The notes below the pieces were generated by a model, which was given only the letters and a program-made list of their open reading frames with translations, did no database searches and was not told the origin of the DNA. DNA of 64,000 nt from NCBI GenBank assembly GCA_910583945.1, contig CAJTYF010000004.1, forward strand, positions 3,597-67,596, read 5' to 3'. Each line of letters opens with the position of its first letter. Position 1 is the first letter of the stretch. The position numbers and the translations under genes are program-made. The DNA comes from an uncultured Bacilli bacterium. Its GTDB lineage: Bacteria; Bacillota_I; Bacilli_A; RF39; UBA660. This document shows positions 1 to 45,735 of this stretch, one piece after another.

Positions 1-333
1 AGGTTCATGGAAGTTAAAGTGTAAAGTTTGTTTCTGGGTGTGTTTTTTATAGGTGAATGCATTTAAAAGATGATAGATTTTTTCAGAGATTTCTTCCACA
101 TAAATGGGAATGGTATCTAAAATGTTGTGAATGAGCCCTATGTGGTCACCATGGCTGTGGGTGATGAAAACGGCGTCATAAGCGGGAGTTCCTTTGGTTA
201 ATCCTTCTATTTCAAAGTCTTTTTCTTCATCAAGGTCACTTCCAAAGTCGATGATGATATTAGCGTGTTCGGTTTTAATTTCAGTGATACATCCCCCTAT
301 TTGATTGGTTCCTTTCCAAATTTTTACTTTCAT
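1..333 (-). CDS. MBL-fold metallo-hydrolase, N-terminal part (gene runs off the window start)
   Basis: Minus-strand ATG at 331-333 overlaps the upstream TGA stop as ATGA. Hand translation MKVKIWKGTNQIGGCITEIKTEHANIIIDFGSDLDEEKDFEIEGLTKGTPAYDAVFITHSHGDHIGL carries the HxHxDH metallo-beta-lactamase motif (THSHGDH). Not in the ORF track because it is truncated. Confidence 0.6.
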   Translation of the reverse strand, partial: MKVKIWKGTNQIGGCITEIKTEHANIIIDFGSDLDEEKDFEIEGLTKGTPAYDAVFITHSHGDHIGLIHNILDTIPIYVEEISEKIYHLLNAFTYKKHTQKQTLHFNFHEP

Positions 334-2402
334 AAAATACCTCTTAATTTACTTTCTAATAATGTTTTTAATTTTAGTTGTTCGGTGAATTTGGTTTCAG
401 TTCTTAAGGCTTCTTCTATTTCTTTTTTGGTTATATGAGGATTTATTTCGTTTTGTTTGAAGTAAGTAGAATAAAAAATTTTAGGGTAATCTATTTTTAG
501 TTTTGCAAGTCTTAAGAACATGACGCTATAAGATAAGAGGTGCCCTCTTGGGAAAAGGTATTTTATTTTGCTGACGGATTCGATTAACCACTCAGGCATC
601 TTTTTTTCTTGCATTAACCTTTTGTATTCTTCCCAACTCTCCTTTTTTAATCTTCCAAAACTGATGTCTTCCATTATTTTTAAGGCTTCTTTTCTTTCAA
701 ATTGATAGTTTAATAAGGTTTCTAATAAGTCTTCTCTTGAAGAAATGGTGTCTTTTAACTTGCAAATTTTCTTTTCGAGCAAGTTTTGAGCGTTTTCATA
801 CCACGTGTCTGTGCCATGAAAAAGACCATAGAGCTTTATTAAATCTTCTTGAGAGTAAAGTTTTAATGAGGGATCCTTTTTTTCTATAAAGTCTAATAAG
901 CATTCATGAAAGCCTAGTATTCCAAATGGATAAGTAATTTCTTCTTTAGTTATTTTTAATACTTTGGGACTATTAAATAAAGAAATGGTACGATTGTCGA
1001 TGACTAATTCGTGAATGTCTTCTTGAATTTGGTTTTGAATTTCTTCTAATAAGGTTAGTAACGAGTGTTCTAGGATGCCAAAACTGGTGATTTTTAAGTT
1101 TTCTGTTGGAATTTGAATGATTTTTTTATTTCCTATTGTTTTAAAGGGAAGAAAAGATGGGTCATTTTCTTTTGGGAAGATGTAGTTTCGGCCCACATGG
1201 ATTCCTTCGGTCATTTTTACTCCAACGATTTTTAAGGCTAAGGCTTCTTTTTCTTCATTTTTTAATGTGAGGTTAAATTTTAGGCAATAGTCTTCAATTT
1301 TTTTTAAGGCTTCTTTTGGAGAATAGACTTTTTCCGTTTTTAGATAGTAGACGTTATATTTTTCTTCTAAAGGTTTTAGGATTTCTTCTCTTTCATAAGC
1401 AAAGTTTATATTGATATCTGGCTTTTTATCAAAGTGACTTCCATAAAATATTTCGGGAGCTAAGTTTTCTAGAATGGGATTAAATTCGGTAATGTTTAAT
1501 AAGTAAGCAATAAATGAAGAAGCGACTGCCCCTCTTGAAGAGGTTAACTCACTTTTTTTGCCTTGCATAATTTCTGCCCATATAAGATAAATGCTTGCGG
1601 TATGCTGGTTGAAAATACTTGTTAGTTCGAGATTTATTCTTTCTTGGACTTCCAAAGGAATATTTTTGCCATATTTTTCTTCTACTTTTTCTTGAATTAA
1701 GGTTTTTAATTTTTCCTCTGATTCCTCTATCTCTGGTTCTTTAGGTTCTTCAAGAGTTATTTTTTCTATCTGATTTATTAATGTCTTTTGGTTTTCAATA
1801 AAAATTTCATGTTTGATTGGTTCATCAAGATAAGAAAATTCTTCCCAAAGTTCTTCTTTTGTTTTTAAGTGAAAGTCTTTTAAATGTTCCATTTTTTGGT
1901 TCATTAGAATGGCCCAGGCTAATTTGTCTTCTTTTTTTAGGTAACGGACTTCATTTAGGATCAAGGCTTTTTTGTTTTGTTTTTTCGCGAAGTCAAGGAT
2001 TTTTAAAACTTCTTCTTTCTTCGTAGTGCTAGGAATTCCTCTATAATCATAATAGAAATCCAGTGCGTTTGGTTCTTCTTGGATTAAAATAGTGACGACG
2101 TTTGGGCATTCTTTTAAATCTTCAAGAGTAATCTTCTTTAATGAAAGTAGTTTAAATAATTCTTTTATCCCTTGGTTGTTTTTGGCAATGACAATGAAGG
2201 ATAGTAATTCTTTGGTGGTTATTTCCATGCCATACATTAAATTTTTGTTTTGTTCTTTGGTTAATAAATTTACTTGATAAAAATCGGAGGTATCTTCTTT
2301 ATTGGCTAAAATAAAGGTTTTTTCTGTTTCCATTAACTCTTTTATCTCTATTAAACTCTCTTTATTTGTTTTGGTGTGGACCCAATGAAGGATTTCATTC
2401 AT
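330..2402 (-). CDS. C-family DNA polymerase alpha-like protein (DnaE/PolC-like palm-thumb-fingers core). The PHP region is degenerate and there is no clamp-binding or OB C-terminus.
   Basis: 690 aa. SSRGAVASSFIAYLLNITEFNPI matches the GRGSAAGSLVAY..ITD.DP motif of Pol III alpha. PDININF aligns with the catalytic PDFDVDF (DnaE) / PDIDLNF (PolC) motif. PRGHLLSYSVMFLRLAKLKIDYP matches the fingers helix (K.HAAAYA). The N-terminal ~230 aa retains the PHP-like LLAxNxxGYxNLxxL trace (FIVIAKNNQGIKELFKLL) but not the His residues. Confidence 0.55.
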   Translation of the reverse strand: MNEILHWVHTKTNKESLIEIKELMETEKTFILANKEDTSDFYQVNLLTKEQNKNLMYGMEITTKELLSFIVIAKNNQGIKELFKLLSLKKITLEDLKECPNVVTILIQEEPNALDFYYDYRGIPSTTKKEEVLKILDFAKKQNKKALILNEVRYLKKEDKLAWAILMNQKMEHLKDFHLKTKEELWEEFSYLDEPIKHEIFIENQKTLINQIEKITLEEPKEPEIEESEEKLKTLIQEKVEEKYGKNIPLEVQERINLELTSIFNQHTASIYLIWAEIMQGKKSELTSSRGAVASSFIAYLLNITEFNPILENLAPEIFYGSHFDKKPDININFAYEREEILKPLEEKYNVYYLKTEKVYSPKEALKKIEDYCLKFNLTLKNEEKEALALKIVGVKMTEGIHVGRNYIFPKENDPSFLPFKTIGNKKIIQIPTENLKITSFGILEHSLLTLLEEIQNQIQEDIHELVIDNRTISLFNSPKVLKITKEEITYPFGILGFHECLLDFIEKKDPSLKLYSQEDLIKLYGLFHGTDTWYENAQNLLEKKICKLKDTISSREDLLETLLNYQFERKEALKIMEDISFGRLKKESWEEYKRLMQEKKMPEWLIESVSKIKYLFPRGHLLSYSVMFLRLAKLKIDYPKIFYSTYFKQNEINPHITKKEIEEALRTETKFTEQLKLKTLLESKLRGIL

Positions 2403-2916
2403 AATATTTTTTTACCTCGCTTTCGTATAAAACTAAATCAATGTTGATGTCGTGATTTTTTACAAAATCGCTAATCATATTTTTTAACATGGGTCCTACT
2501 TCTTCATGCGTAAAGCCATATTCTCCTGTTCCAATACTTGGGAGTAAGATGTTTTTGTAGGATTTTACACCCAATTCATCCAATAGGTTTTGATAAGTTA
2601 TTTTTAGAATTTCTAAAGGATTTTTATAGTCCCAAACACGAGGACCTTGAACAAAAAGAATGTCCATATTTAAGTTAAATCCAGGAGTGATGCGTATTTC
2701 TCCGACTTTCATTTCATTGGCATTACTGTCATACGTGATATGATATTTTTCACTTGTGTAGGCTTCTAGTACTTGGACGCCTGCTTTTTTAAATATGGCA
2801 CCACTTACCCCCATCCCCATACGCATAGCGGGGTTGGTTGGGTTTACAATACAATCATGATTTTTTAAGATTTCATCACTGGTGATGTCACCGATTAAGA
2901 TGTTCATTTTGCCCAT
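2395..2916 (-). CDS. macro-domain protein (ADP-ribose binding/processing)
   Basis: 173 aa. N-terminus IGDITSDEILKNHDCIVNPTNPAMRMGMGVSGAIFKKAG fits the macro-domain GDIT...IVNAAN...GGGV.GAI..AAG signature. Overlaps its neighbours by 8 nt upstream and 0 nt downstream, consistent with operon translation coupling. Confidence 0.65.
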   Translation of the reverse strand: MGKMNILIGDITSDEILKNHDCIVNPTNPAMRMGMGVSGAIFKKAGVQVLEAYTSEKYHITYDSNANEMKVGEIRITPGFNLNMDILFVQGPRVWDYKNPLEILKITYQNLLDELGVKSYKNILLPSIGTGEYGFTHEEVGPMLKNMISDFVKNHDINIDLVLYESEVKKYYE

Positions 2917-3519
2917 TTAGTCTATCTCCTCAATCGAAAAATTTTCTTTGTTATAGGTTATTTTTATTTCGTTTTCTATTTTTCCTATTTGATAATTTTT
3001 AGGAATTTGATAATTCTCTATATCTTTTTCATTCATAAATAAAATAACTTCACTTTGATTTTCTTTCGCATAGTTTTCGATTTGATTAAAAATGGTTTCT
3101 ATGTCTTCTGGGGTGCTACTAATAAAATCATCAAAGTCATCGATTAGGATACAATCGTATTTTGAGTTATGTTCAAATATAAATTCTAAATAAGTTTCGT
3201 CCGAAAATTTGTTTTTGCTCATGATTAAGTCGGATGAACGAATTTTTTCGATGGCATTTACAAATTTGGTGGGATTGATTTTTTCTTTAGTAGTGTGGCT
3301 AACGCCTAACGTTGGGTCTAAATAGGTTTCGATGAGTTTATAGGATTCTCCTGATAATAAGGCAATGAGTTTACTTAAGTAAAAGTTTTTGGGAACATAA
3401 AATATTGGAAGAAAGACGGATTTGTTTTGATTTAGGGCATATTCGTTTAGAAGGTTGATAAAAAAAAGTATTCTTTCTTTGTTATTCATACTCGTGATAA
3501 TTGAAATTTTTGGGTTCAT
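2917..3519 (-). CDS. hypothetical protein, possibly a RecA/DnaB-C-like fold without Walker A
   Basis: 200 aa. YDCILIDDFDDFISS...EVILFMNEKD resembles the Walker B/strand region of DnaB-C/KaiC-like ATPases (LIVIDYLQ...). No GxxGxGK[ST] was found. Start overlaps the upstream stop by 4 nt. Confidence 0.45.
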   Translation of the reverse strand: MNPKISIITSMNNKERILFFINLLNEYALNQNKSVFLPIFYVPKNFYLSKLIALLSGESYKLIETYLDPTLGVSHTTKEKINPTKFVNAIEKIRSSDLIMSKNKFSDETYLEFIFEHNSKYDCILIDDFDDFISSTPEDIETIFNQIENYAKENQSEVILFMNEKDIENYQIPKNYQIGKIENEIKITYNKENFSIEEID

Positions 3520-4832
3520 GAGTTGCTCCTTTCAAAGGCAAAGATTCTTTCAGGATTTTGGTTGGATTCTTCAAAGATTAAGTCTACTTTTTCATCGTCT
3601 CTTTTTAAAGTGGTGATGATGTTTTGGGTAAATTTACTAAAGTTATGATAAAAGGGTAAATCTTCTTTAGGGTGACGTATTTGATAGGCATTCAAGATGA
3701 TGATTTTGGTGTTTTCATATTTGGCATATTGGTAAAGTTGTTCTACTATTTCTTCTCCCTCTTTCGAACAACGTTTTTGGAAAGTGATAAAGTCATTTAT
3801 GATTAAGTAATCATAATGTTTTTCTAAGTTTAAAATCTCAGTTTCTAAGTCTATTTTCTTAAAAAGTTCAGTGTCTTCAAAGTTTTCATAAGTACAATTT
3901 AGCGAATTATTTTTTAGTTTTCCATCAAAGTCACAAATTCTTATTTGGGTGTTTTCTTTTAAAACTTGTTCTTTTAGGATGTTTAGAAGCGTTAGGGCCT
4001 CTTGGTTTTCTTCACTATATAATACACTGATTTTATTATTGGTGAAGCGGGTTTCAAATGTTTTTTCGATTCCATTTTCTTCAAATGTTAAAATTTCATT
4101 TGTCTTTGAATTGAGGCTTACTTTTTCGCCCGTGTCAAAATGATAAATCCCCTCTTTTGCATTATAGTCGATTACTTTTACGTTATGGTGCTTATAAAAG
4201 TTTAGGCTCCCATAGCCAGAAAGTCCTCCTTCTAAAAATAAAAATTGGGTATTGGTTTTACGGGCGTAGTTCTGAATGGTTTCTAAAACTTTTACTCTTG
4301 CTTCTTCATAGGGGATTTGGAGCTCTTGTTCTAATTTTTTTTGTTCATATCTTAAACAACTATTGATGTCTTTTAGTATAACTAAATCATATTTTGTATT
4401 TTTATAATGTTCATCAAAAATAAAGTAAAGGTTGCCATAGTCAGCATAGACGGATTCGTTTATTTGAAAGTGACTGTTTTTGATGGTTTCTAAAGAGGCG
4501 AAAAAGGCTTCTTTGTTTGGTAAATCGTTTACAACTTGCCTTTCTTCTAGTCGTTGTTGATAACTAAATGGGGCTAGATAAGCGAGTGTTTTTTCCAGGT
4601 CAATGTTGGAAATTCGCGAAACGAGGTTGGCATGAAACCAACTCGTGTCTTCAGGAACGTCATTCACTGAGGTAATAAGTAAAACTTTTTTGTTTTCTTT
4701 TATGGCTGTTTCATAAATGATGCTGGTTAGTAGTGGTGTTAAATCTAAGGTAGACCCCCAATCTCTAGATATCCACAAATTAATTTCTTGGGTTAATAAT
4801 TTGTTTGTTATTTTTATTTGATTCATATACAC
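3516..4832 (-). CDS. hypothetical protein with two tandem degenerate RecA/DnaB-C-like halves (no P-loop)
   Basis: 438 aa. Two internal segments (YDLVILKDINSCL...TQFLFLEGGLS and YDYLIINDFITFQ...KIIILNAYQIRH) resemble the LIVIDYLQLM...VPVIALSQLNR block of DnaB C-terminal domains. There is no Walker A. This is a fold guess, not a family call. Confidence 0.45.
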   Translation of the reverse strand: MYMNQIKITNKLLTQEINLWISRDWGSTLDLTPLLTSIIYETAIKENKKVLLITSVNDVPEDTSWFHANLVSRISNIDLEKTLAYLAPFSYQQRLEERQVVNDLPNKEAFFASLETIKNSHFQINESVYADYGNLYFIFDEHYKNTKYDLVILKDINSCLRYEQKKLEQELQIPYEEARVKVLETIQNYARKTNTQFLFLEGGLSGYGSLNFYKHHNVKVIDYNAKEGIYHFDTGEKVSLNSKTNEILTFEENGIEKTFETRFTNNKISVLYSEENQEALTLLNILKEQVLKENTQIRICDFDGKLKNNSLNCTYENFEDTELFKKIDLETEILNLEKHYDYLIINDFITFQKRCSKEGEEIVEQLYQYAKYENTKIIILNAYQIRHPKEDLPFYHNFSKFTQNIITTLKRDDEKVDLIFEESNQNPERIFAFERSNS

Positions 4833-4930
4833 TCTTTCCTTTTCTACTTACATTATAGCACAATAAAAATGCCGTTTAGTAAACGACATCTTTTTTTATA
4901 TTTATTTCTTTTAATCACAGGTATCTTACG

Positions 4931-5971
4931 TTATTTTATAATTGTATTTACTTGATACCATTCTTTCTTTTTAAAGTCATACCCGATGTTCCCGTAAAGA
5001 TTATTGAAGTCTTCTAAGTCTCTTTCGATTTGACGTTCCGATTGCAAAAAAACTTTTTTTAGTTCTTTCGTGGTGAAGGTTTCTTTTCCTTTTAGATATT
5101 TTTTCAGTTCTTCTAGTTTTTCTCTTCTTTGGACACTTATTTTACGTAATTTATTTGTTAATAAGTTGTTAAGGAATAAACGATACAGTGTTTCGTCTTC
5201 AAAATAGTTCTCGTTCACATAATAAAAGGGACTGTATTTTAAATGGTATTTGTTTTGTTTTTTTACGTCTTCTGTGATGATATAGACATAAGTAAAGTTT
5301 TTAAAGAATGAGCGGTATTTTTTATCTAGTTCAATGCTATTTTGGGGTAAAAAATTTTCATTTATGATTGCCAGAAAGCCTTGTTTTCTTTTTAGTTCGT
5401 CTAGATTGTTTACTTTTTTTATGTAGGGAAATTGACAAGCAAATTCATTTTCTATTCTGTCTTTAAATTCTTGTTGTCTTTTGTCGGTGAAGTTTATGTT
5501 ATCTAGTTTCCCACAAAGGTAGACAATACGTTTTTCTTTTTTTAAATCGATAGTGTGCGGTTTTACGTTTATTGTTTTTATTGGGGCTTTTACAGATTTA
5601 AGGGCTTTTTTTATTTGGTTTTGAGTATTTAAAATGTTATAAAAGGAAACTTGTTCAAGATAGGCTTTTAATTTTAATAAGTTTTCGTTTAAGTTTAAAA
5701 AGAGGATGAGATCACTTTCAATGATTTCTTCACTGAACATGGGGATACCTGGTTTTATTTGAATGCTCTTTTTCACTTTTTCTTTTTCTTCTTCAGTGAT
5801 ATATCTAAGGTCAATGTAGCCGAACTGATTGATAAGTTTTTGGTCATAAAGCCTTGTAAAGTCTTCTATTTCTAGTTCATTCATGCCACTAATTCTTGTT
5901 CCTAAAATCAAAATGCGTTTTTCAGGATTTTCCTGAATGATTTTTTTAATTTTCCTAATTTCCTCTTTCAT
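4931..5971 (-). CDS. hypothetical protein with C-terminal HTH-like segment
   Basis: 346 aa. C-terminal TFTTKELKKVFLQSERQIERDLEDFNNL resembles DeoR/wHTH N-domains (ITxxELAExxxVSxRTIRRDL). Overlaps the NUDIX gene by 4 nt. Confidence 0.45.
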   Translation of the reverse strand: MKEEIRKIKKIIQENPEKRILILGTRISGMNELEIEDFTRLYDQKLINQFGYIDLRYITEEEKEKVKKSIQIKPGIPMFSEEIIESDLILFLNLNENLLKLKAYLEQVSFYNILNTQNQIKKALKSVKAPIKTINVKPHTIDLKKEKRIVYLCGKLDNINFTDKRQQEFKDRIENEFACQFPYIKKVNNLDELKRKQGFLAIINENFLPQNSIELDKKYRSFFKNFTYVYIITEDVKKQNKYHLKYSPFYYVNENYFEDETLYRLFLNNLLTNKLRKISVQRREKLEELKKYLKGKETFTTKELKKVFLQSERQIERDLEDFNNLYGNIGYDFKKKEWYQVNTIIK

Positions 5972-6432
5972 TCTACTCCCTTTATTTTGTTTAAGGCTTG
6001 CTCTGTCATTTCATCTCCAACACTCCCCCAATTCAAGTAATCATTTAACTCTTCTAAGGGGATCAAAATTCTTTTGTAAGTTTCCTGTTCGGCGGGATCT
6101 GGTCTTTCTTCACCAATGGATTTAATCGTTGCTAACATTCTTACTTGGGCATAGGAATCCTTTGTATCACCGATGACTTCTTGAAAGCCTAAATAGGAGA
6201 TGTTTTCTATTGTTACATTTACTTCTTCTAATACTTCGCGTTTTAGAGTTTCTTCTAACGTTTCATTTTTTTCGGGGTGCCCACCTGGAATGCGGTAGTT
6301 TCCCTTTTTTTCTTGATAAATCATGACGCGTTTCTTCTCATCTAAGATAATGCCAGAGACTTGGGTAATTCTCATATTTTTTGGTACTTCTTCAGTATAA
6401 TATTTATAATCAATCATTTTGTTTTCCACCAC
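5968..6432 (-). CDS. NUDIX hydrolase
   Basis: 154 aa. GGHPEKNETLEETLKREVLEEVNV fits the Nudix box Gx5Ex7REUxEExGU. Confidence 0.75.
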   Translation of the reverse strand: MVENKMIDYKYYTEEVPKNMRITQVSGIILDEKKRVMIYQEKKGNYRIPGGHPEKNETLEETLKREVLEEVNVTIENISYLGFQEVIGDTKDSYAQVRMLATIKSIGEERPDPAEQETYKRILIPLEELNDYLNWGSVGDEMTEQALNKIKGVE

Positions 6433-7436
6433 TATTCTTCTATATTCATATGCCTATTTAATTCTTCTTCTGTTGGAAGATTTTTTATTACTTCATTAGT
6501 TACTTTATTTATTATTTTATACTCACTAACTCCAACAGGTTTATTTATATATTTTAAAGTATAATCTACTATTTGATTACTTTTATTTTGACACATAATA
6601 ATTCCTATCGAGGGATTATCATTTTCTTCTTTTATTGCTTCGTCTAATGCTGCTAGATAAAAGCCCATTTTACCAGCATATTCAGGTTTAAATGCTCCCG
6701 TTTTTAGCTCAACCGCAATGTAACATTTTAATTTAATATGATAGAAAAGTAAATCAATTAGGAAATCTTGATTGTCTATAGTTATTTTATATTGATTTCC
6801 TACAAATGAAAAGCCTTTGCCCAATTCAAGTAAAATATTCTTTAATCTACTTAACATTTGACTCTCCAGTTCTTTTTCTTTGTAATTTTCGGTTAGTTCA
6901 AGTAAATCGAATACAAATGGTTCTTTTAGCATATTATTTGCAAGGTCACTATTTTGTTTTAAAGTTACATCAAAATTGTTATGTTTAACAGTATGCTCTT
7001 GTCTTCTATAAAGATTTGTGTCTATTTGATATAATAATACATTTTTAGACCAACCTTCTTCTAAACATCTTTTCATATACCATTTACGTACTTTTTTATC
7101 TTTCACTTTTTCAATCAACGATACATTATGTTTCCATGGTAATTGTGCACTTAGGTGCACAAATTCTTCATCTTCTTTATATTCTTTATAAAAAGACTTC
7201 ATATATTTTAAATTACGAACTGAGAATCCTTTTAAATTAGGGAAAGTAATTTTTAGTTCTAAGGCTATATTATCTATAAATTTATTTCCCCAATTACTAT
7301 TCTCTTCTAGTATTTTCCCTATATTATAATACAAATTAACTAATTTTTTATTTGCATCATTCATTATTTCAATTTGTGTTTTAGTAATCGCCTTTTTAAT
7401 ACTATTGATTATTTCTTGTAAAGTTTTATCTAGCAT
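6432..7436 (-). CDS. PDDEXK-family nuclease, DUF1016 / YhcG-like
   Basis: 334 aa. N-terminal LYYNIGKILEE... and C-terminal FLIDLLFYHIKLKCYIAVELKTGAFKPEYAGKMGFYL are typical of DUF1016 (restriction-endonuclease-like fold, D..E.K core). Its start at 7436 begins the long minus-strand gene string. Confidence 0.65.
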   Translation of the reverse strand: MLDKTLQEIINSIKKAITKTQIEIMNDANKKLVNLYYNIGKILEENSNWGNKFIDNIALELKITFPNLKGFSVRNLKYMKSFYKEYKEDEEFVHLSAQLPWKHNVSLIEKVKDKKVRKWYMKRCLEEGWSKNVLLYQIDTNLYRRQEHTVKHNNFDVTLKQNSDLANNMLKEPFVFDLLELTENYKEKELESQMLSRLKNILLELGKGFSFVGNQYKITIDNQDFLIDLLFYHIKLKCYIAVELKTGAFKPEYAGKMGFYLAALDEAIKEENDNPSIGIIMCQNKSNQIVDYTLKYINKPVGVSEYKIINKVTNEVIKNLPTEEELNRHMNIEE

Positions 7437-7509
7437 GATTTATCCCTCGTAAAGCCATCCTATCGTACATATGTTTAAGAGTCAAGAGATTTTTTTTATT
7501 TTCAAATCA

Positions 7510-7580
7510 ATTTATGCTCTCTATAATTGCTTGATTTCTATTTTTGATTGTTTATTTTAAAGATATAGTTTTTTCTAAAT
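7510..7580. repeat. ~70-bp direct repeat, copy 1 (partner at 9852-9926)
   Basis: Core GATTTCTATTTTTGATTGTTTATTTTAAAGATATAGTTTTTTCTAAA at 7533-7580 recurs near-identically at 9879-9926. A looser match (AATCnATTTATGCT...TATA..T..TTG) extends ~25 bp further left. Confidence 0.7.
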
Positions 7581-7671
7581 ATAATTCATGAGATATTTTG
7601 TCTGCATGAGTTTTTTAAGTACAATTGTATTAATATTGCCTTTGTTTTAATTTCTACAAAGTCATAGATAT

Positions 7672-8176
7672 TTATTTTTTTATTCTTTTTCTATCTAAAA
7701 CATGCCAAACATCAATTTCCTCTTTTTCTGGTATTTCAAATAGAGAAGAAACTTTTTTTAATAATCCTTCATCAACATAAAAACTGGAACCTCCATTACC
7801 TGCTAAAACTTTACTATTTCTTTCTTCTATGTTTTCATACCAAGTTTTATCATCAATATCAATATAATGCATTTCTACGAAGATATTATTATCATAGCCA
7901 AACTTTTTAATTTCATTTCTATTTTCTTTTGTCCAAAAGCCCCAATCTAAAATCACCGTACATCCCGCATTCACAATTTCTACGGCTTTTTTTCTTAAAT
8001 ATAAATTCACTCTTCTTGCAAATTCATCATAATCTTCCCCTTGTTTATTATTTGTCAAATCATAAGTGACTTCATCCGTAGATAAAATCACAGCCTGTTC
8101 TTTTTCTTTTAATTGATTCGCGTAATAAGTTTTGCCACAACCAATTTTTTCCACATATACAAATTAATTTTGCCAT
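7672..8176 (-). pseudogene. P-loop NTPase / small kinase-like gene with a frame disruption in a poly-A run near its 5' end
   Basis: The track ORF 7672..8154 starts at GTG and reads (V)EKIGCGKTYYANQL. An upstream ATG at 8174-8176 reads MAKLICICGKN... in another frame. A 1-nt change in the GGAAAAAATTGG run (~8143-8154) would fuse them to MAKLICICGKIGCGKTYY, a canonical Walker A (GxxGxGKT). Confidence 0.45.
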
Positions 8177-8190
8177 AAATCTAATCACCT

Positions 8191-8774
8191 TTATTTCCTT
8201 AATCCATCGCTTTGTACCCAAGAATAAAATAAACTTTTATCTGGAATATCATATTCGTAATCTAATTTTGAATTAAAACTATCTATTAAATCAATTGCCT
8301 CTTTTAATACTTCCTCTTTGTTTTTACCTGCTATATCTAAAATAACTTCATTAGGTAATAAATTTCTTTCCATTATTTTTCTAGTGGATACTTCTAATAA
8401 TTCCAAGTCAACTAATCCATTTGCACCACGAGAAATCATTTGTCTTTTATTTTGTTCATAGTCACTTGAGATTAATTTTAATGTAACAAAGTTTGTGCCT
8501 TTAATATTTGTGGTATTTCTCTCGTTCTAATGTCATTGAAGTCAAGTGCTATAATATTTTTCAGTCCCTTATCATAAAAATATTTTAATAATAGAATAGA
8601 AGATTCCCACATTATTTCCTCTTCAAATTTTCCTTCATCAACATTATTTGGTATTCCAAATTCTGGAATCATATTTTGTTCAAAATATACACCGTTATAA
8701 TGTTTATATAATTCTCTTGCTAATGTTGTTTTTCCAATACCACTTGCCCCAATTATAAATATATAATCTTTCAT
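8191..8774 (-). pseudogene. split P-loop kinase-like gene (track ORFs 8478..8774 and 8191..8439)
   Basis: The N-terminal fragment has Walker A IIGASGIGKTTLAREL. A second co-directional ORF begins 38 nt downstream of where it ends. The two total ~180 aa, the usual size for this family, so a frameshift or nonsense split of one gene is the likelier reading. Confidence 0.4.
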
Positions 8775-8819
8775 TTTCGTTCCTCCATTTATCTTTTAAT
8801 TATGACAAATTTGGCATAA

Positions 8820-9618
8820 TTAGATTTATTCATTTAATTCAAAGTTTTTCTTTTCTTCTTCTACAGCACTAATTAATTCTTGTTCTGTAGGTAAATGCAA
8901 TTTATAACTAGAAGAAAAAATATTTTTATTGGCTTCTGGTAGAGTATATTTTACAACAGTCTTGTTTTTCAATGTTGATAATAAAATACCAACAGTTGGA
9001 TTTTCATCGCAATTTTTTAAAATCTGTTTCTAAATAATCTGTATTTTCTTTAATATGAAGAAATTCTAAAACAAATGAATCTTTTACTAAATCTTTACTT
9101 GATTCTAAAACTTGACCTTTTTCAGCAAGATTTAAAATTTTTTCTTTATTAGTAGATAAGGCTAATCTTTCATATAATAGAGAACCGATTTGCCTCCCAA
9201 GTTCCCTAACACTCCATTTAGTATTTATACATTCATTGAATTAAAAATTCCTTTTAGTTTCTTCCTCTATCTTTATTAATTCCAAATAATGTGACCAACT
9301 TAATTGCGACGACACTGTTGTCGCAATTGGAAAATAAATATAAAACTTTCTCATTCTCTCTAAATTTCTTTTAGAAAATCCTTTGCCAAATTCATTCGTT
9401 AATTTTTGTGATAGTTTCTCCAAAACAGCATCACCATAACTTGCTCTTTCATCTCCCTGTTGGATTTCCATAATTGCCTTGCCAATATTCCAATAAAGCT
9501 TAAGCATTTCCGTATTTACAGCACTATATACTTTATTTCTACTATTAATAACTAATTCTTTTATATTATCAAATATAGTATTAATTTCATTATCATTTTT
9601 AATTAATTCATTGTCCAT
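8820..9618 (-). pseudogene. DUF1016/YhcG-like nuclease pseudogene (paralog of 6432..7436)
   Basis: Track ORF 9241..9618 (125 aa) encodes only the DUF1016 N-terminus (LKLYWNIGKAIME...). Hand translation of 8820-9240 on the minus strand yields the missing middle and C-terminal segments (ECINTKWSVRELGRQIGSLLYERLALS... and ...NCDENPTVGILLSTLKN...) in other frames, broken by stops. Confidence 0.55.
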
Positions 9619-9851
9619 TAATTGCCTCCAATTTTCAATTCAAATCATAAAGACTTCTTATGTCTAAATTATACTCTAAGTAAAACTCTTCCATACTCCA
9701 TATTCATTTTAACTTCTTTTAATTGTAATAAGGGAATTCTTTTAGTTAAACTTATGAAACTTGCTAGCTACCGATTATGTCAATATAAACTTAACTGATA
9801 AACGATTAACTATCGTAAATACTGTTTAAGATTCGATTGTTTTTTAAATAA

Positions 9852-9926
9852 ATCTATGCTATTTATAGTATTTGCTAGATTTCTATTTTTTGATTGTTTA
9901 TTTTAAAGATACAGTTTTTTTCTAAA
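9852..9926. repeat. ~70-bp direct repeat, copy 2 (partner at 7510-7580)
   Basis: See copy 1. This copy overlaps the 3' end of the HD-domain gene. Confidence 0.7.
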
Positions 9927-10534
9927 ATTTTTGCCATTTTTTTAGGAATTTCAAAGGGTTTTGCCCATTCTTTTTGAAGTAAGCTTAAGTCAATGTTTTC
10001 TAAAGTTTCATAATTTATAATTAAATTTTCTGCGGTTATTTCAATACTCACCTTTTTTATTTTTTGAACTTCTTTATTGATGTTATCTTGAATGGTGGAA
10101 TTTATGGTTCGATGATAAGTGATGTCTAATTTGTCAGCTAGGACTAAAGAAAGTCCTATAAATGAATTTATTTCATTTCCAGAGCCATGATCTTGAATCG
10201 CATGTTCTAAAATCTTTTTTTCTTCTTCCGTAACGTTTGTGTTTTCTAAGTATTTACGAAACATCTTACTACTTTTTACGGCGTGGTCTTTTTTGTTGGT
10301 ATCACTTTCACTTAAACCAATATCATGAAGTAAAGCGGCGGCCATACCTAAATCAATGGTTCGTTCATCAACTCCTAATTGTTCTAAAATAGTTTTAACG
10401 TACTCAGTGACTCTTTTGTAATGACCTAAACCATGTTCCCAATCCCATTTGCCATCGGTAATGAAATGTCTGTTGCCAATTTGTTCTGCAAGTTCTAAAT
10501 ATTCTTTATTATTTAAAATGCATTCATAAATCAT
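9875..10534 (-). CDS. HD-domain phosphohydrolase
   Basis: 219 aa. Has H..H (HGLGHYKRV) and HD (AALLHDIG) metal-binding motifs. Overlaps the upstream gene by 4 nt. Confidence 0.7.
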   Translation of the reverse strand: MIYECILNNKEYLELAEQIGNRHFITDGKWDWEHGLGHYKRVTEYVKTILEQLGVDERTIDLGMAAALLHDIGLSESDTNKKDHAVKSSKMFRKYLENTNVTEEEKKILEHAIQDHGSGNEINSFIGLSLVLADKLDITYHRTINSTIQDNINKEVQKIKKVSIEITAENLIINYETLENIDLSLLQKEWAKPFEIPKKMAKILEKNCIFKINNQKIEI

Positions 10535-11154
10535 TTTTCTACTCCTTCCATTTGTTTTATGTCTTCTAGAGTTTCAGGCCAATTTATTTTTTCTAAATAA
10601 ATTTTTGGACAATTGCCATTTTTAAAAGCAATACCAATATGATTTAAAGTACTAAAGTTCATTTCTCGTTGGTCATCGTAGTTTTTAAAATAGTCTTCTA
10701 TCTTTATTTGTTCATAATAATTCTCATCTAATTTTTGATTATCACTATAACTTAAATCATAGCCATAAAAGATTTCTTCAATTTGCGTAGCCAATTTTTC
10801 ATCATGTATATTTATTCGATAAATATCTTTAACTTTGGATAATTCTTTTATTTTGTCTCCTAAATTTATAAAAGGCGGATAGCGAAAGAAATAAATGTAA
10901 TAGGCACCATTTTGACCACGAAATTTTTTTAACGCTTCGATATAATCTTCTCTAGTTAAATTTTCTTTTCCATGGTATTCTTTTAATCTCCATTCATTTA
11001 TTATGCGTTGTTTATATTTTAAGACGTTTTTATCAAATTCTTTAAACATTTTATGATCGTACATATATTGTAAACTGTTTAAACCTTTACTTAAGTTGAC
11101 ATCTTTATTTACAAGGTGATAAAAATAAAGAGGCGTTTTTTGATTTGTATCCAT
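10531..11154 (-). CDS. hypothetical protein
   Basis: 207-aa ORF translationally coupled to the HD-domain gene. No motif recognised. Confidence 0.5.
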   Translation of the reverse strand: MDTNQKTPLYFYHLVNKDVNLSKGLNSLQYMYDHKMFKEFDKNVLKYKQRIINEWRLKEYHGKENLTREDYIEALKKFRGQNGAYYIYFFRYPPFINLGDKIKELSKVKDIYRINIHDEKLATQIEEIFYGYDLSYSDNQKLDENYYEQIKIEDYFKNYDDQREMNFSTLNHIGIAFKNGNCPKIYLEKINWPETLEDIKQMEGVEK

Positions 11155-11202
11155 ATTGCTTTTCCTTTCTTCTTATCTACTATTTTTACATCATTCTTTT
11201 GA

Positions 11203-12072
11203 TTATTTTAAAACTAATTTTAAGGCGTTTGTATCATGACCAAAAACGTTTCTAGCATTTATTCTTGCCATTAAAATAGATTTTGTTATACATAATTTAG
11301 AGTTTGTCATGATAATGTCTTGTTGATTTTTATCTACAATAAATTTTTCTAAGGCTATTACATAATCATTCTCTATTTTGTGGTAATGATTAACCGAATA
11401 TATACGACTTAAATATTCTAAAGCAATTTCAATAGCGTATTTTTTATTTTCATCCGTTCCGTTATAAAACATCACAGGATTTTTCTTCTTATCGTAATTC
11501 AAAACAAAAAAATTAGTTAATATAAAATCAAGTTCTTTAACATTTTCTACTCTTTTCTTCTTTAAGCCTGATTCATCCATTTTCACAAAAAATTGGTAAT
11601 TTTTTTTATTTTTTAATTTTTCAAAAACTTTAAGTGCTTCTCTATCTTGAAATTCGATTCTGTCTTTTAAAATAAAAGTTTCTATTCGATCTAGAGTATT
11701 GTTATCTAGTTGATTTGTTTCAAAATCATGAAGATGATTCAAATAAAATAATAAAAGATTTCCTACTTTATGATACGTTTTGACAAATTCTTGATATTTA
11801 TTAGACAATTGACTATAGTATAAGGGGTCTTTTTTTTCAAAGTAACCAGCTATAAACGCATTGAAAGCTTTATGAGCGTGCACGTAAAAATTTTTTAACT
11901 CTTCTTCATTTAGTCCTAAATCTAGATAATACAAAAATTCTTCTTTTATTTGCTCCAGATAATCACTTTCTTCTTGCATTTTTTTTATAAATTCTAATGT
12001 TTCATCAAAAAATTTTTTTTGTTCTTTCTTTGGTTCTTCTTTTAAAAAAGAAAGCTGTTTTATTTTTTCCAT
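11203..12072 (-). CDS. hypothetical protein
   Basis: 289-aa ORF lying 48 nt upstream of the previous gene on the same strand. No motif recognised. Confidence 0.5.
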   Translation of the reverse strand: MEKIKQLSFLKEEPKKEQKKFFDETLEFIKKMQEESDYLEQIKEEFLYYLDLGLNEEELKNFYVHAHKAFNAFIAGYFEKKDPLYYSQLSNKYQEFVKTYHKVGNLLLFYLNHLHDFETNQLDNNTLDRIETFILKDRIEFQDREALKVFEKLKNKKNYQFFVKMDESGLKKKRVENVKELDFILTNFFVLNYDKKKNPVMFYNGTDENKKYAIEIALEYLSRIYSVNHYHKIENDYVIALEKFIVDKNQQDIIMTNSKLCITKSILMARINARNVFGHDTNALKLVLK

Positions 12073-12156
12073 AATCTCACCTTGTTGAATAGCTTCTATT
12101 ATATTTATAACTTGTCAGAAAGGCAATAAAAAAAAATAGTCATTTTTAAAATTTTA

Positions 12157-13038
12157 CTATTCTTTTATTTTATCAAAGTAAACATCGAAGTCTTTTTTTG
12201 ATTCTGTTTCGATAGCTTTTATCAATTCTTCTTTGTAAGATTCTTTAAAACCTTTAAAAGTTTGGTTTCCTATGATGGTATAAGGAACACCTTTAATGGT
12301 ATCGTTCATTTGGCGAGCAAATAATTCTAAATTTTCCTTATTTTCTTTGTTGTACCAAACTTCAAAAGGGTATAAGTTATAAAGTTTGCCGTAGTCTTCC
12401 TTTATACTTTCAAAAAATTTAAATTCTTCTTCACAGTGAGGACATCCGTCTCCCCAAAAGAAATAGATATTCACTTTGTTTTTTTCTTTTTTTACATTTT
12501 CTAAATGAACATTTTTGGATGGTGCTGGTGTTTCTTCAGCCTCTGTTTCATTAGAAACGGATGAATTCTTGTTTATTTCTTTTAAATGAATATATTTTGT
12601 AAACCAACTTTTAAAGCCTTCTTTGCTTTCATAAAAACGTAAGTCTTCCTCTTTATTGGCTTCTAAAAAGTCTATTCTTTTTCCATTTTCAAATAGAATA
12701 AATGAAGGATAATAATTTATTTTATCTCCAACTTTCAGTTCTTTTAATTTTGAAAAAGCAATTTTATAAATAGTAACTTTATTTTCTTCTAAAAACTCAT
12801 TTAATACGCTTTCAAAATCAGAAGAAGTGATGCACATTGGCTGGTAAACAAAAACGGCAAAGCTTTCTTTTTCGTTGATTAATTTTTCTAATTCTTGCCC
12901 TTCTATCTCGATTATTTTATTTTCTCCGTAATATTTTTCTTCTAAATCAAAGGTTTTATTTTTCGGTTTCAAGATGGAAAAAAGAGAGAGAACCACTCCT
13001 ATTAATAAAATAGGGAGAATAATTTTCCATTTTTTCAT
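12157..13038 (-). CDS. membrane-anchored thioredoxin-like protein (two Trx-like modules)
   Basis: 293 aa. N-terminal TM (KIILPILLIGVVLSLFSIL). CPHC redox motif (WGDGCPHCEEE) in the C-terminal module. The first module has QPMCITS in place of CxxC. Confidence 0.55.
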   Translation of the reverse strand: MKKWKIILPILLIGVVLSLFSILKPKNKTFDLEEKYYGENKIIEIEGQELEKLINEKESFAVFVYQPMCITSSDFESVLNEFLEENKVTIYKIAFSKLKELKVGDKINYYPSFILFENGKRIDFLEANKEEDLRFYESKEGFKSWFTKYIHLKEINKNSSVSNETEAEETPAPSKNVHLENVKKEKNKVNIYFFWGDGCPHCEEEFKFFESIKEDYGKLYNLYPFEVWYNKENKENLELFARQMNDTIKGVPYTIIGNQTFKGFKESYKEELIKAIETESKKDFDVYFDKIKE

Positions 13039-13745
13039 TTTTTCACCTTTGTTAAGACATCAAAATCAATATTATAATAAGGCACTTTGCTAAAATCATA
13101 CACATCTTTTCCGTCTTTTGTTCTTTTTACTTCAATGGCATGGTTGCCTTTATAATACCAGTAGCCGCCGATGTCACGAACGCGTTCTTTATCCCAACCT
13201 AAAGCAATTAATAACTCTTTAACTTGACCCGCATAGCCACCAGCTCCACACATGATAAAAATATTTTTATCTTTTGGGAAGATGGCTTCTAAAATGGATA
13301 AAGATTCTTCATAATTGGCTGTGTAGCTCCCATCTTCTTCTAATGTATATAACGTTTCTCCCGTGTACAAACCACTTACGTTTTCACGCTTTTTTTGTTC
13401 AATGTATTCATCAGTAAAACCCGCTAGATAAACCGATGGAATGACTTCAAATCCTTCAATGTATCCACTTAAGTAACGATCGCCACCTTTATTTTCCCAA
13501 GTAGCGGTATCAACAAGCATTCTCACATCACGATAAACGGTATCGGTACGATTTAAATACTCGTCAATGGTGGTTTCATCAATGTTTTTATCTATTCCAT
13601 ATTTTCCTCGCAATCCTTCTGCTAATTCAGCTTTAGGTAAGGGCTCTTCAATAGTTCCTTTTTCTTTGAATACAAAATGAGTAAATACTCCTCCCCCTAC
13701 AAAACAAACTATCATTACTAAAATTAATATTATATTTTTTTTCAT
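13035..13745 (-). CDS. membrane-anchored protein with a possible rhodanese-like domain
   Basis: 236 aa. N-terminal TM. IFIMCGAGGYAGQ resembles a rhodanese active-site loop (weak). Overlaps the downstream gene by 4 nt. Confidence 0.4.
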   Translation of the reverse strand: MKKNIILILVMIVCFVGGGVFTHFVFKEKGTIEEPLPKAELAEGLRGKYGIDKNIDETTIDEYLNRTDTVYRDVRMLVDTATWENKGGDRYLSGYIEGFEVIPSVYLAGFTDEYIEQKKRENVSGLYTGETLYTLEEDGSYTANYEESLSILEAIFPKDKNIFIMCGAGGYAGQVKELLIALGWDKERVRDIGGYWYYKGNHAIEVKRTKDGKDVYDFSKVPYYNIDFDVLTKVKK

Positions 13746-13835
13746 TTTCTTCCTCCTTCTGTTTTTAATTTAAAGAAAAAAAGAGAAAATGGCAATCGTC
13801 TTTTGGTTTAATCCGCTCAACTTTAAGTTGATTTT

Positions 13836-14537
13836 TTAAGAACAACTTTTTAGCGTTAAAGGAATGGTGTACGTTCTGTTTTTCTCATCTTTTGTTGTTG
13901 CTTTTATGGAAATAAATAAACTCTCTTCTTTATAAAATTCACAAACTTTTTTATAATTATCAACAGAAAAAGTGACTTCTTGTAAAAATTTTTCTAACGT
14001 AATGGTATTGAGTCCTTCGTATTTATAAGCACTAATTTTCTTTTCTATTTCTTCGTTTGATTCGTATAAAGTACATTCAATCGTTTGATATTCCTCTTCA
14101 TTAACTTCTCCACAATATTCAATGTTTGAAATATAAATGGCGGATTTGTTTTCGTTATAGGCTATGTTTCCAGAAATGTTAAAGTTTTTACATTCAGAGG
14201 AAAGGGTTTTAAATTGAAAATCGTTTTTATTTTGATTCCATATCTTAAAAAGAACGACTGTAAAAAGAATTAGAGAAAGTGTCACTAAAATAATTAAGAG
14301 ACTTTTTTTATTCTTTCGATTTGGTGTTTTCCTTTCTCCATCAAATAATTCTTCTAAACTAATATTAAAATCTTTGCTTATTTGTCTTATTAAAATCATA
14401 TCTGGCATGTTTAAGCCACGTTCCCATTTGCTGACGGCTTGGAATGTTACATGGTATTTTTCAGCCAATTGTTTTTGAGTTAAATGATTTGTTTTTCTTA
14501 TTTCTTTAATTAATTGACCAAATTTTTCTTGATTCAT
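13836..14537 (-). CDS. XRE-family HTH regulator with TM segment and extracytoplasmic domain
   Basis: 233 aa. LTQKQLAEKYHVTFQAVSKWERG is a Cro/C1-type HTH. It is followed by a hydrophobic span (LLIILVTLSLILFTVVLF) and a ~130-aa C-terminal domain. Confidence 0.65.
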   Translation of the reverse strand: MNQEKFGQLIKEIRKTNHLTQKQLAEKYHVTFQAVSKWERGLNMPDMILIRQISKDFNISLEELFDGERKTPNRKNKKSLLIILVTLSLILFTVVLFKIWNQNKNDFQFKTLSSECKNFNISGNIAYNENKSAIYISNIEYCGEVNEEEYQTIECTLYESNEEIEKKISAYKYEGLNTITLEKFLQEVTFSVDNYKKVCEFYKEESLFISIKATTKDEKNRTYTIPLTLKSCS

Positions 14538-17200: not shown

Positions 17201-18193
17201 TTATTTTCGATTCTTTTTTAGAATTTCTAAATATTGATTTTGGTATTTTTTTAAAACTAAGTCTTCTTTTCCCCGAACCATAGCTATAAAGTTTAATCTT
17301 CCTTCTATTACTTTTTTTAATTCTTTAATCAGTTTATTTTTATGTATATTTTGACAATCGTCCTTTTCATCTTTTTTAAAATAATTTAAAGCGGTCGCAT
17401 AAAGCCCCTCTTTTTCACAATGATTCAGTAATGCTCTTAATTTCTTTATGTAAATTTTTTTTACGTTTACCTTTTCATTAACAATTAAACCTGTCACTTC
17501 TTTTCTCTCCCGTTGCCAACTATAATTGGTTTTGGTTTCATTGATGGTAAAGCCACTTCTTTCGATTAATTTTCGTAATTCTTGGCCAAGTATAACTTCG
17601 TTGTCATGATTTCTTTTGACAATTTTTTCAGAAAAAAGGGTTGGACTCGATAAAGTGATATCATCCGCGTATCTTGTATAATGAAATTGATACTGTTCAC
17701 TTAAATGAAGTATTTTTTTATCTAATGAATAACACACAATATTTGAAAGACTGGGTGAGGCTGGTGACCCTTGAGGGAGTGCATTGTGAAAACAGGAAAG
17801 GTTTGCCAGAATGGTTGCGACTTCTTTTGGTAAATTAAATGGCTGGTTCATAAAAATGCCTCGAACACGTCCAAAATGAATGGAGGGAAAGAAATCTTTT
17901 AAATCAATATTTAAAATGTATCCCGCTTTACTATGAATAATAGCATTATCTACAATATTTTTACCTTTGATAAAGCCATATTGACATTCTAAAAAAGTAT
18001 ATTTTTTATCAATATACTCTTTTATTTTTTCTTGTACTTTTTTTAGATTCCAATCAGGTGATGCAATGGTACGATATCCGCCACTTCGTTTTGGCAATTT
18101 AAATGTGTAGTATTTACCTTTTGTTAAAGCTTCATTCAATACTTCCTCATCAATATCTAAAATATAGCTTACATAATTTTTAGGATTTTTCAT
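17201..18193 (-). CDS. retron-type reverse transcriptase
   Basis: 330 aa. RT motifs LPQGSPASPSLSNI and YADD (RYADDITL). Retron hallmarks NAxxH (VDNAIIHS) before motif 1 and VTG (RKEVTGLIVN) after motif 7. The size is typical of retron RTs. Confidence 0.75.
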   Translation of the reverse strand: MKNPKNYVSYILDIDEEVLNEALTKGKYYTFKLPKRSGGYRTIASPDWNLKKVQEKIKEYIDKKYTFLECQYGFIKGKNIVDNAIIHSKAGYILNIDLKDFFPSIHFGRVRGIFMNQPFNLPKEVATILANLSCFHNALPQGSPASPSLSNIVCYSLDKKILHLSEQYQFHYTRYADDITLSSPTLFSEKIVKRNHDNEVILGQELRKLIERSGFTINETKTNYSWQRERKEVTGLIVNEKVNVKKIYIKKLRALLNHCEKEGLYATALNYFKKDEKDDCQNIHKNKLIKELKKVIEGRLNFIAMVRGKEDLVLKKYQNQYLEILKKNRK

Positions 18194-45464: not shown

Positions 45465-45560
45465 GTTACTTATTGACTTATTGACTACCGATTTGTTACA
45501 TCTTGCTATTGTTTTAAATAGTAGCAAGATTAACATTAAGGTAAATTTATAAAAATTATT

Positions 45561-45607
45561 GCTACATGCTACATGCTACATATAAGGGGTAATACTAGCC
45601 CTTATAT
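45561..45607 (+). promoter_or_regulatory. candidate rolling-circle origin with iterons and a stem-loop carrying a nonanucleotide-like loop
   Basis: Three tandem 7-mers GCTACAT at 45561-45581, then stem ATATAAGGG (45580-45588) / CCCTTATAT (45599-45607) enclosing the loop GTAATACTAG. The loop contains TAATACTAG, reminiscent of TAATATTAC / TAGTATTAC. It lies 130 nt upstream of the Rep gene. Confidence 0.5.
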
Positions 45608-45735
45608 GGTGGGGGGCTAAAGTGGCTACGCCACTCGCCCCACTCATGGGCGTGTATTAACTAGTATATGTATTAGCGCATTAGTTCTTTGAAAATTTAA
45701 TAATAATCTAAACTTTTAAAAATAGGAGTGATAAC

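Follow-up and report, generated by a model that had tools for sequence, protein, structure and literature searches.

A rare cassette of gut bacteria that combines inactivated PolC- and DnaB-like proteins with two candidate nucleases

DNases of the metallo-beta-lactamase (MBL) fold are established immune effectors elsewhere, where they are activated by proteases and belong to a different MBL family from the one described here (PMC12642450). The subject of this report is a gene cassette at the start of a 64,000-nucleotide stretch of contig CAJTYF010000004.1 from an uncultured Bacilli bacterium (assembly GCA_910583945.1). The whole of this stretch is called the window, and coordinates are window positions unless a locus is named. 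The cassette joins a truncated, apparently inactive PolC-like protein (Pol690, or Pol), two DnaB-like proteins (p438 and p200) and a protein with a degenerate P-loop-like domain (p346) to a beta-CASP MBL protein and a second candidate nuclease (p413). With the protease-activated MBL DNase modules trypsin-MBL and HamMAB (PMC12642450, PMC13069673) it shares a multi-gene organization and an MBL-fold nuclease as candidate effector. However, the cassette MBL is of the beta-CASP type, and classification as a protease-MBL module was rejected because no protease is encoded in cassettes of types A, B or C (defined below). In two related loci, L021 and L024, this MBL subfamily is paired with an FtsH-like protease.

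The other components also have described relatives. PolC is the replicative DNA polymerase III alpha of Bacillota, and its C-terminal part carries clamp contacts. Pol shares with it the C-terminal part of the PHP domain, the palm, thumb and fingers, and the motifs SRGxxxSS and K(I/V)KYxFPxxH, but it is about half as long, has lost the PHP H-x-H motif, and has had two of the three catalytic aspartates replaced, lineage by lineage. The RecA-like fold of the C-terminal domain of DnaB-family helicases is shared by p438, but p438 and p200 show no N-terminal domain or linker and lack the Walker A lysine, and no sequence-profile similarity to DnaB was detected. Compared to DnaB and to inactive RecA-like scaffolds such as Elp4/5/6 and the Rad51 paralogs, p438 apparently carries two domains per chain and is accompanied by a separate one-domain paralog, an arrangement predicted from sequence and model. 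The MBL protein has MBL motifs 1–4 and beta-CASP motifs A–C, as do the beta-CASP nucleases RNase J, CPSF73 and SNM1/Artemis and the structural-genomics protein EF2904. Unlike RNase J, it ends after the beta-CASP/MBL core, at about 405 aa, with no RNase J C-terminal domain, and its subfamily is often accompanied by a p413-like partner (in L031 the two are fused) and by helix-turn-helix (HTH) or WYL regulators. Finally, a macro-domain protein encoded within the array weakly matches models of DarG, the partner of DarT in DarTG, but it is a stand-alone protein of 173 aa compared to about 340 aa for DarG and is dispensable for the core. DarTG was rejected, as no gene matched the DarT ADP-ribosyltransferase.

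The combination of a dead PolC, dead DnaB-like domains and two candidate nucleases matches no described system and is most plausibly a new kind of defense against phages or plasmids. The first-pass annotation of the window had likewise known of no system with this composition, and PADLOC and literature searches returned nothing comparable for the core.

The six-gene core and its versions

The cassette has been found in three deeply diverged versions, termed type A (the window and loci L001 and L010), type B (L004 and L011) and type C (L016, metagenome-assembled genome (MAG) GCA_964437305.1). All three contain p346, p438, p200, Pol, MBL and p413 in this order, with overlapping or abutting codons, at 32–54% protein identity. 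The type C version, ordered p343-p455-p207-Pol716-MBL416-p457 and carrying a p438 homolog of 34% identity, has no macro, NUDIX or HD gene, and the core is therefore taken to be these six genes. Type B proteins are 49–86% identical to those of the window; there the HD gene directly abuts NUDIX, and neither DUF1016 nor the AAA_33/P-loop gene fragments found in type A are present. In L010, Pol is ~91% identical, and the fragments are present while the full DUF1016 gene is not.

The window edge cuts the MBL gene. On contig CATKZS010000004.1 (L001, MAG GCA_949841435.1), which matches the window exactly at the protein level, this gene is whole (12070–13287 of L001), and the p413 gene, encoding 413 aa, starts 3 nt later (13291–14532). 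An unrelated secreted protein and then a signal peptidase follow. The first-pass annotation had described an eight-gene operon running head to tail with a single 98-nt gap. The tight packing is borne out by the open reading frame coordinates (Table 1) and by the junctions, which from position 1 measure −4, −8, 0, −4, +98, −4 and −1 nt, and profile searches upheld the calls of DUF1016, NUDIX, macro, C-family polymerase and MBL domains. The boundaries of the unit were wrong: the MBL gene is truncated at the edge, p413 lies beyond it, DUF1016 is strain-specific, and at least two transcription units are likely. Based on synteny and the source contig, the unit is redrawn without DUF1016, with MBL completed and p413 added, and with macro and NUDIX as accessory genes. 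The view that the array holds pseudo-enzyme copies of replisome components stands, on firmer ground than that annotation could see, but its membership list does not. DUF1016 is a strain-specific insertion, since it is missing from L010, L004, L011 and L016. NUDIX and macro had been taken to suggest ADP-ribose or NAD-derived nucleotide metabolism; because both are missing from L016, the most distant version, ADP-ribose processing is a lineage-specific accessory layer.

The cassette is rare, fast-diverging and found in gut Mollicutes-like bacteria. An exhaustive HMMER search of 1.84 billion representatives located p438 in only two other lineages, three in total. A scan of GTDB found Pol in 2 of 185,579 species, ‘uncultured Bacilli bacterium MGBC108787’ and ‘uncultured Tenericutes bacterium’; word-indexed homolog searches with Pol were dominated by genuine DnaE.

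Comparison of types A and B gives ratios of nonsynonymous to synonymous divergence (dN/dS) of 0.09–0.24 for every cassette gene, which means that the dead proteins are maintained by selection. For Pol, p438, p200 and p346 the ratio is 0.14–0.24 at dS 1.4–1.9, and for Pol itself it is 0.18. Values of dS are 1.0–1.9 from NUDIX to p413, compared to 0.18–0.39 in the flank on the reverse transcriptase (RT)/HTH side and 0.62–0.65 on the signal-peptidase side. The cassette alleles are therefore older than the surrounding genome. In addition, GC skew is +0.06 to +0.11 over positions 1–6000 and −0.14 to −0.29 over 6000–14000, all genes there being on the minus strand, and this change at about 6000 fits a foreign origin of the NUDIX-to-MBL segment.

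The 98-nt gap in front of p438 contains a terminator-like hairpin of 13 bp (4865–4893, −11.9 kcal/mol) with an A-tract and a T-tract, in which the palindrome CGTTTA-C-TAAACG is embedded. It is followed by an extended −10 promoter at 4852–4862, TGTGCTATAAT. The element TGnTATAAT is invariant in types A, B and C, and the hairpin is kept in A and B. The hairpin and conserved promoter make at least two transcription units likely, and suggest linked but distinct units, NUDIX-p346 on one side and p438-to-p413 on the other; p346 may control them.

Table 1. Positions of cassette genes, control region and upstream neighbors in the window
Feature	Position	Strand	Description
MBL, first 111 codons	1–333	−	Candidate beta-CASP MBL nuclease; full gene of 405 aa extends beyond the edge
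Pol690	330–2402	−	Truncated PolC-like protein, 690 aa; degenerate PHP, palm, thumb, fingers
Macro protein, 173 aa	2395–2916	−	PF01661 2e-19; types A and B only; 8-nt overlap with Pol
p200	2917–3519	−	Single DnaB-C/RecA-like domain without Walker A; paralog of p438 N-terminal domain
p438	3516–4832	−	DnaB-C/RecA-like fold, likely a second such domain; no Walker A lysine
Intergenic control region	4852–4893	−	Hairpin, then extended −10
p346	4931–5971	−	N-terminal degenerate P-loop-like domain; C-terminal module ending in HTH
NUDIX hydrolase	5968–6432	−	Intact Nudix box; PF00293 7.8e-15; types A and B only
DUF1016/YhcG PD-(D/E)xK protein	6432–7436	−	YhcG_C 1.2e-58; DUF1016_N 3.8e-39; PADLOC PDC-S02 5e-125
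Variable insert between HD gene and NUDIX	7472–9920		~100-nt direct repeat, 7472–7574 = 9823–9920
p289, p207, HD phosphohydrolase	9875–12072	−	Upstream neighbors kept in types A and B; HD 1.2e-7

Inactivated replisome-like proteins and candidate nucleases

The sequence of Pol indicates that it derives from PolC and is predicted to be unable to polymerise. Pol matches the C-family polymerase palm (PF07733, 1.1e-23), and its residues 130–649 align to ~640–1330 of the 1474 residues of PolC structures 9qpc/3f2b (E 2.6e-60), a span that covers the C-terminal part of PHP, the palm, thumb and fingers. The N-terminal domain, OB fold, exonuclease and C-terminal part of PolC are absent. Against the NCBIfam PolC model, type A scores 2.6e-93 at 313 bits, far under the 873-bit cut-off, and type C scores 8.5e-149. 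The catalytic motif PDIDLNF of PolC has become PDININF in type A, PDIFINF in type B and ISIDINF in type C, and KLDILGH has become SFGILEH in types A and B and IINLLYH in type C. The palm triads are therefore D,N,G in type A, D,F,G in type B and S,D,N in type C, compared to D,D,D in the DnaE reference, so that every lineage misses a pair of the three catalytic carboxylates, and the pair is not always the same. In the PHP domain the H-x-H motif has been lost (HWVH / EFKTF stand in its place), and PF02811 is not matched. SRGxxxSS and KYLFPxxH, the latter of the pattern K(I/V)KYxFPxxH, are retained, and type C still has the PolC zinc-finger insert. With neither the catalytic residues nor half of the PolC architecture, Pol was rejected as a candidate for the organism's only polC. 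Three lineages that inactivate one polymerase site by different changes provide a clean case of repeated pseudo-enzyme evolution under purifying selection. Four further Pol-like genes adjoin the MBL subfamily; three of them are dead, including those of L023 (triad S,T,Q) and L031 (N,N,N), and one, in L020, has an intact triad.

Up to three DnaB-C/RecA-fold domains without the Walker A lysine are predicted, with moderate confidence, in p438 and p200 together. Phage DnaB helicases are the matches of the p438 model in a viral structure library, and p200 aligns to the N-terminal half of p438 (hhalign 95.6%, E 1.2e-8) and more weakly to its C-terminal half; p200 orthologs are present in L004 and L016. 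The P-loop position reads SRDWGST, SREWGST or THDMDSS in p438 and TSMNNKE in p200, with no Walker A lysine, and the Walker B aspartate is unconserved. Neither the sequence nor the model of p438 shows a DnaB N-terminal domain or linker, and hhalign of p438 and p200 against the DnaB_C-like 244-aa protein of the window itself was not significant. The 200-, 438- and 346-aa proteins are without match in Pfam and NCBIfam, no PHROG family is matched by p438, p200 or p346, and PDB sequence and profile searches with these three and with p413 gave nothing significant.

The HTH tail that had been proposed for p346 is weakly supported: residues 285–335 match the PADLOC WYL-HTH model at 3.5e-4, and residues 146–346 resemble stand-alone proteins of 206–210 aa with HTH_11 (1.3e-6) that adjoin the MBL subfamily. 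A degenerate P-loop at the N-terminus had been overlooked; it reads GTRISGMN, GTRCSGKK or GTMGSGIE. From these sequence features p346 is a candidate regulator or adaptor. It has no fold assignment because a single-sequence AF2 model gave a pLDDT of 37. A match of its N-terminus to Arl2 (E about 0.9) is at most a hint of a P-loop. Ubiquitin matches to residues 273–328 were rejected as a compositional artefact, as the segment is K/E-rich, the matches include zero independent stretches, and polyubiquitin repeats inflate them.

MBL and p413 are, by their motifs, two apparently active nucleases. The first-pass annotation had recognized the MBL fold, and had overlooked both the full beta-CASP nature of the protein and p413, the second likely effector. 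Full-length MBL matches Lactamase_B_2 (4.1e-16) and RMMBL, and the motifs HSHxDH, DHS, HTGD, TEGT, HTSGH and IPIHT are invariant in the alignment of types A, B and C. The match to the NCBIfam RNase J model is at 7e-18, with 64 bits, below the cut-off of 400, and the closest PDB sequences are EF2904 (2az4, 1.3e-18) and then RNase J. In p413, E225, D263 (within GRID) and E277-x-K279 are invariant in six sequences of 20–62% identity. There is no Pfam, NCBIfam or PDB profile match for p413, and hhalign against the DUF1016 nuclease gave none; sub-threshold matches to PDDEXK_11/UPF0102 are seen solely in distant relatives among neighbor genes. In L031 (963–3032), a single 690-aa protein consists of a p413-like N-terminal region fused to MBL, with a dead Pol-like gene after it. 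Judged from sequence, the fusion connects the two candidate nucleases in the Rosetta-stone sense.

The MBL protein belongs to a much wider family: its alignment retrieved more than 526 relatives from metagenomes and none in a scan of viral contigs. Gene contexts were counted in 80 fetched loci. A p413-like gene adjoins MBL in 11 of these, in either order, and at other loci the gene directly preceding MBL is unassigned, encodes about 290–335 aa and has a D...ExK-like motif. Four of the loci contain Pol-like genes and three contain p346-like genes, and further partners include WYL/HTH regulators, a DEDD exonuclease (L017) and a KOW protein (L023). Plasmid copies exist as well, arranged as WYL-hypothetical (277 aa)-MBL on Butyrivibrio proteoclasticus pCY186 (L097 4089–7173) and as hypothetical-MBL on Sphingomonas pC33. 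These searches expose a widespread module, found on plasmids and chromosomes in many phyla and not included in the PADLOC version searched, which consists of an EF2904-like beta-CASP MBL, often with a partner bearing a PD-(D/E)xK-like motif.

Directly upstream of MBL in L021 (4248–5546) and L024 (1855–3168) lie FtsH-like AAA+/M41 proteins of ~435 aa, apparently with no membrane part; judged by sequence, MBL may be under proteolytic control in some variants. On pCY186, a dnaX-like (DNA polymerase III gamma/tau) gene is found at L097 8504–9709, ~1.3 kb from the MBL module, which lies upstream; it is a further replisome paralog in the vicinity of this module.

Possible functions of the cassette

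The favored reading, a tentative one with somewhat less than an even chance, is that the cassette is a horizontally exchanged, nuclease-based conflict system, most likely directed against phages or plasmids, whose recognition module is built from inactivated replisome proteins. In such a system, the dead PolC, which keeps SRGxxxSS and KYLFPxxH (nucleotide or primer-end contacts), would join a hetero-oligomeric pseudo-DnaB assembly; with two copies each of p438 and p200 (2:2), six RecA-like domains would be available, by analogy to the Elp456 ring. What this scaffold recognizes would be either a replication-type DNA structure of the invader or one of the invader's proteins directed at the PolC/DnaB replisome of the host, and recognition would license the beta-CASP MBL and the PD-(D/E)xK-like p413 to cut nucleic acid. 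The promoter in front of p438 would probably be controlled by p346. Macro, NUDIX and perhaps HD would form an added lineage layer that may remove ADP-ribose-type modifications or break down ADP-ribose-derived molecules.

A sharper version of this reading, possible but considerably less probable, is a replisome-mimic sensor, in which the dead PolC and the dead DnaB-like assembly would be decoys that capture phage hijackers or inhibitors of PolC and DnaB (helicase loaders, polymerase inhibitors) or replication intermediates, and binding would activate the nucleases. If this is true, the cassette would be the first case of a prokaryotic immune system that uses a replication-machinery decoy. More generally, a role in defense would reveal a new route to a sensor, namely to copy essential replication proteins, abolish their catalysis and connect the resulting scaffold to nucleases. 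Decoy or guard immunity would then have a bacterial equivalent at the replisome, a target that many phages hijack, and phage proteins that attack PolC and DnaB could be sought directly with its help.

Several observations weigh against a defense role. PADLOC v2 has no match for Pol, p438, p200, full-length MBL or p413, its MBL models RTasMBL and LmuA matching weakly and on an N-terminal fragment only. The whole core is known in three lineages, so co-occurrence statistics are thin, and the cassette occupies one chromosomal position in two related species, its mobility being deduced from dS and composition only. The AF2 model of p438, with an input of four sequences, is of moderate confidence (pLDDT 71.7, pTM 0.61), and the PD-(D/E)xK assignment of p413 is at the level of motifs. 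Because the nearest beta-CASP enzymes are RNases (RNase J), the substrate of MBL could be RNA. Lastly, a mobile element could just as well account for replication-like proteins beside an HTH regulator.

This last point leads to the alternative of a mobile-element module (from an integrative element, satellite or plasmid remnant), in which the dead PolC and DnaB-like proteins would bind host replisome factors (loader, primase or tau, for instance) and redirect them to replication or maintenance of the element itself, and the nucleases would process element DNA. Every scaffold protein is indeed replisome-derived, the L020 relative keeps an intact polymerase triad, the Butyrivibrio MBL module lies near plasmid rep and dnaX-like genes, L021 contains an ORF6N/KilA-N-type gene, and the deep allelic divergence is compatible with exchange between elements. 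However, in all three versions the flanks of the cassette are free of integrase, relaxase and Rep genes and of att-like boundaries, the viral contig scan produced no relative, and the unknown proteins have no PHROG family. Moreover, the part of PolC with the clamp contacts is missing from Pol, and no N-terminal domain is seen in the DnaB-like proteins. A mobile-element origin of this kind is considered unlikely, though it deserves to be kept in view.

The genes could also be small, independent systems placed side by side in a defense island, with no common machine: NUDIX, macro, an MBL-p413 pair and an unrelated Pol/RecA-like group. MBL is widespread without Pol or p438, often with a p413-like neighbor, NUDIX alone matches a single-gene defense candidate (PDC-S07), and the array is split by an internal terminator and promoter. 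This explanation is nevertheless rather improbable, as the core order is kept with overlapping or abutting codons across 32–54% identity, Pol-like genes stand beside the MBL subfamily in four more metagenomic loci, and macro is inserted between p200 and Pol with junctions of 0 and −8 nt. Still more doubtful is a specialized pathway of reduced-genome bacteria for the repair of DNA damage or ADP-ribosylated DNA, in which macro and NUDIX would strip ADP-ribose adducts, the dead Pol and RecA-like proteins would sense stalled 3′ ends or gaps, and the SNM1/Artemis-like MBL and p413 would trim. Type C has neither macro nor NUDIX, no ADP-ribosyltransferase or lesion-specific glycosylase was detected, and a repair pathway would not be expected in just 3 lineages among 1.84e9 representatives, nor with an allelic dS three- to ten-fold over that of the flanks. 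The loss of catalytic residues in Pol, p438, p200 and p346 might also suggest decaying paralogs, functionless pseudogenes in the making, but this is hardly tenable: reading frames are intact in three lineages, and purifying selection on the same four proteins refutes it.

Accessory genes and neighborhood

The genes that accompany the core in types A and B vary in how closely they are tied to it. The macro protein matches models of O-acetyl-ADP-ribose deacetylase and DarG below cut-off, the DarG scores being 3.4e-6 in PADLOC and 2e-5 in NCBIfam (24 bits, compared to a cut-off of 250). NUDIX matches PDC-S07 of PADLOC at 1.3e-11, and its likely start is ATG 6417, giving 149 aa as annotated in the source record. 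The upstream genes p289, p207 and HD show intermediate divergence (dS 0.68–0.90) and are not seen beside the type C cassette, and their membership in the system is uncertain.

Between HD and NUDIX, a direct repeat that consists of the HD gene 3′ end and intergenic DNA brackets a 2.3-kb insert (7575–9822). This insert contains a truncated DUF1016_N gene (9241–9618) and fragments of P-loop kinase genes (8478–8774, 8191–8439 and 7672–8154). The intact DUF1016 gene that follows the repeat is a different allele from the truncated one, and this site is apparently a hot spot at which DUF1016 (PDC-S02) genes recombine.

The neighborhood in the window is variable and defense-rich, with a retron-type RT, PDC-S02 (DUF1016), PDC-S07 (NUDIX), Fic and a Pnkp-like gene. 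Between an HTH regulator and the cassette (12157–13745, minus strand) lie a double thioredoxin-like protein of 293 aa and a protein of 236 aa, both with a signal peptide or membrane anchor. Their conservation between strains is 87–89%, and they are probably extracellular thiol-disulfide proteins that are unrelated to it. The RT (330 aa, 17201–18193, minus strand) comprises the RT part only, its best PADLOC models being RT-TIR XII, RT-protease XI and RT-Toprim I-C. It is flanked by the 244-aa DnaB_C-like P-loop ATPase (18319–19053, minus strand) and a 786-aa FtsX/LolE-like permease (14749–17109, minus strand). The RT is found without the permease in L004, and RT, ATPase and permease are all missing from L011. 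This RT locus may be an unclassified retron variant.

Further along, a Pnkp-like RNA-repair protein (31708–33915, minus strand) combines an AAA_33 kinase, a metallophosphatase and a T4-type RNA ligase. A Fic protein (35650–36831, minus strand) has HTH regulators close by, and both the Pnkp-like and the Fic gene are further conflict-type genes of the same 40-kb stretch. An ssNA-helicase RNA motif of Rfam (45560–45609, minus strand, 57 bits) immediately precedes a rolling-circle Rep-like gene, which on the plus strand is followed by a 404-aa gene, a Tn916-type Xis and a tyrosine integrase (45736–49530). The genes of 45560–49530 look like a small integrative mobilizable element, and the 404-aa protein is encoded on contigs in 62 blocks of the public collection.

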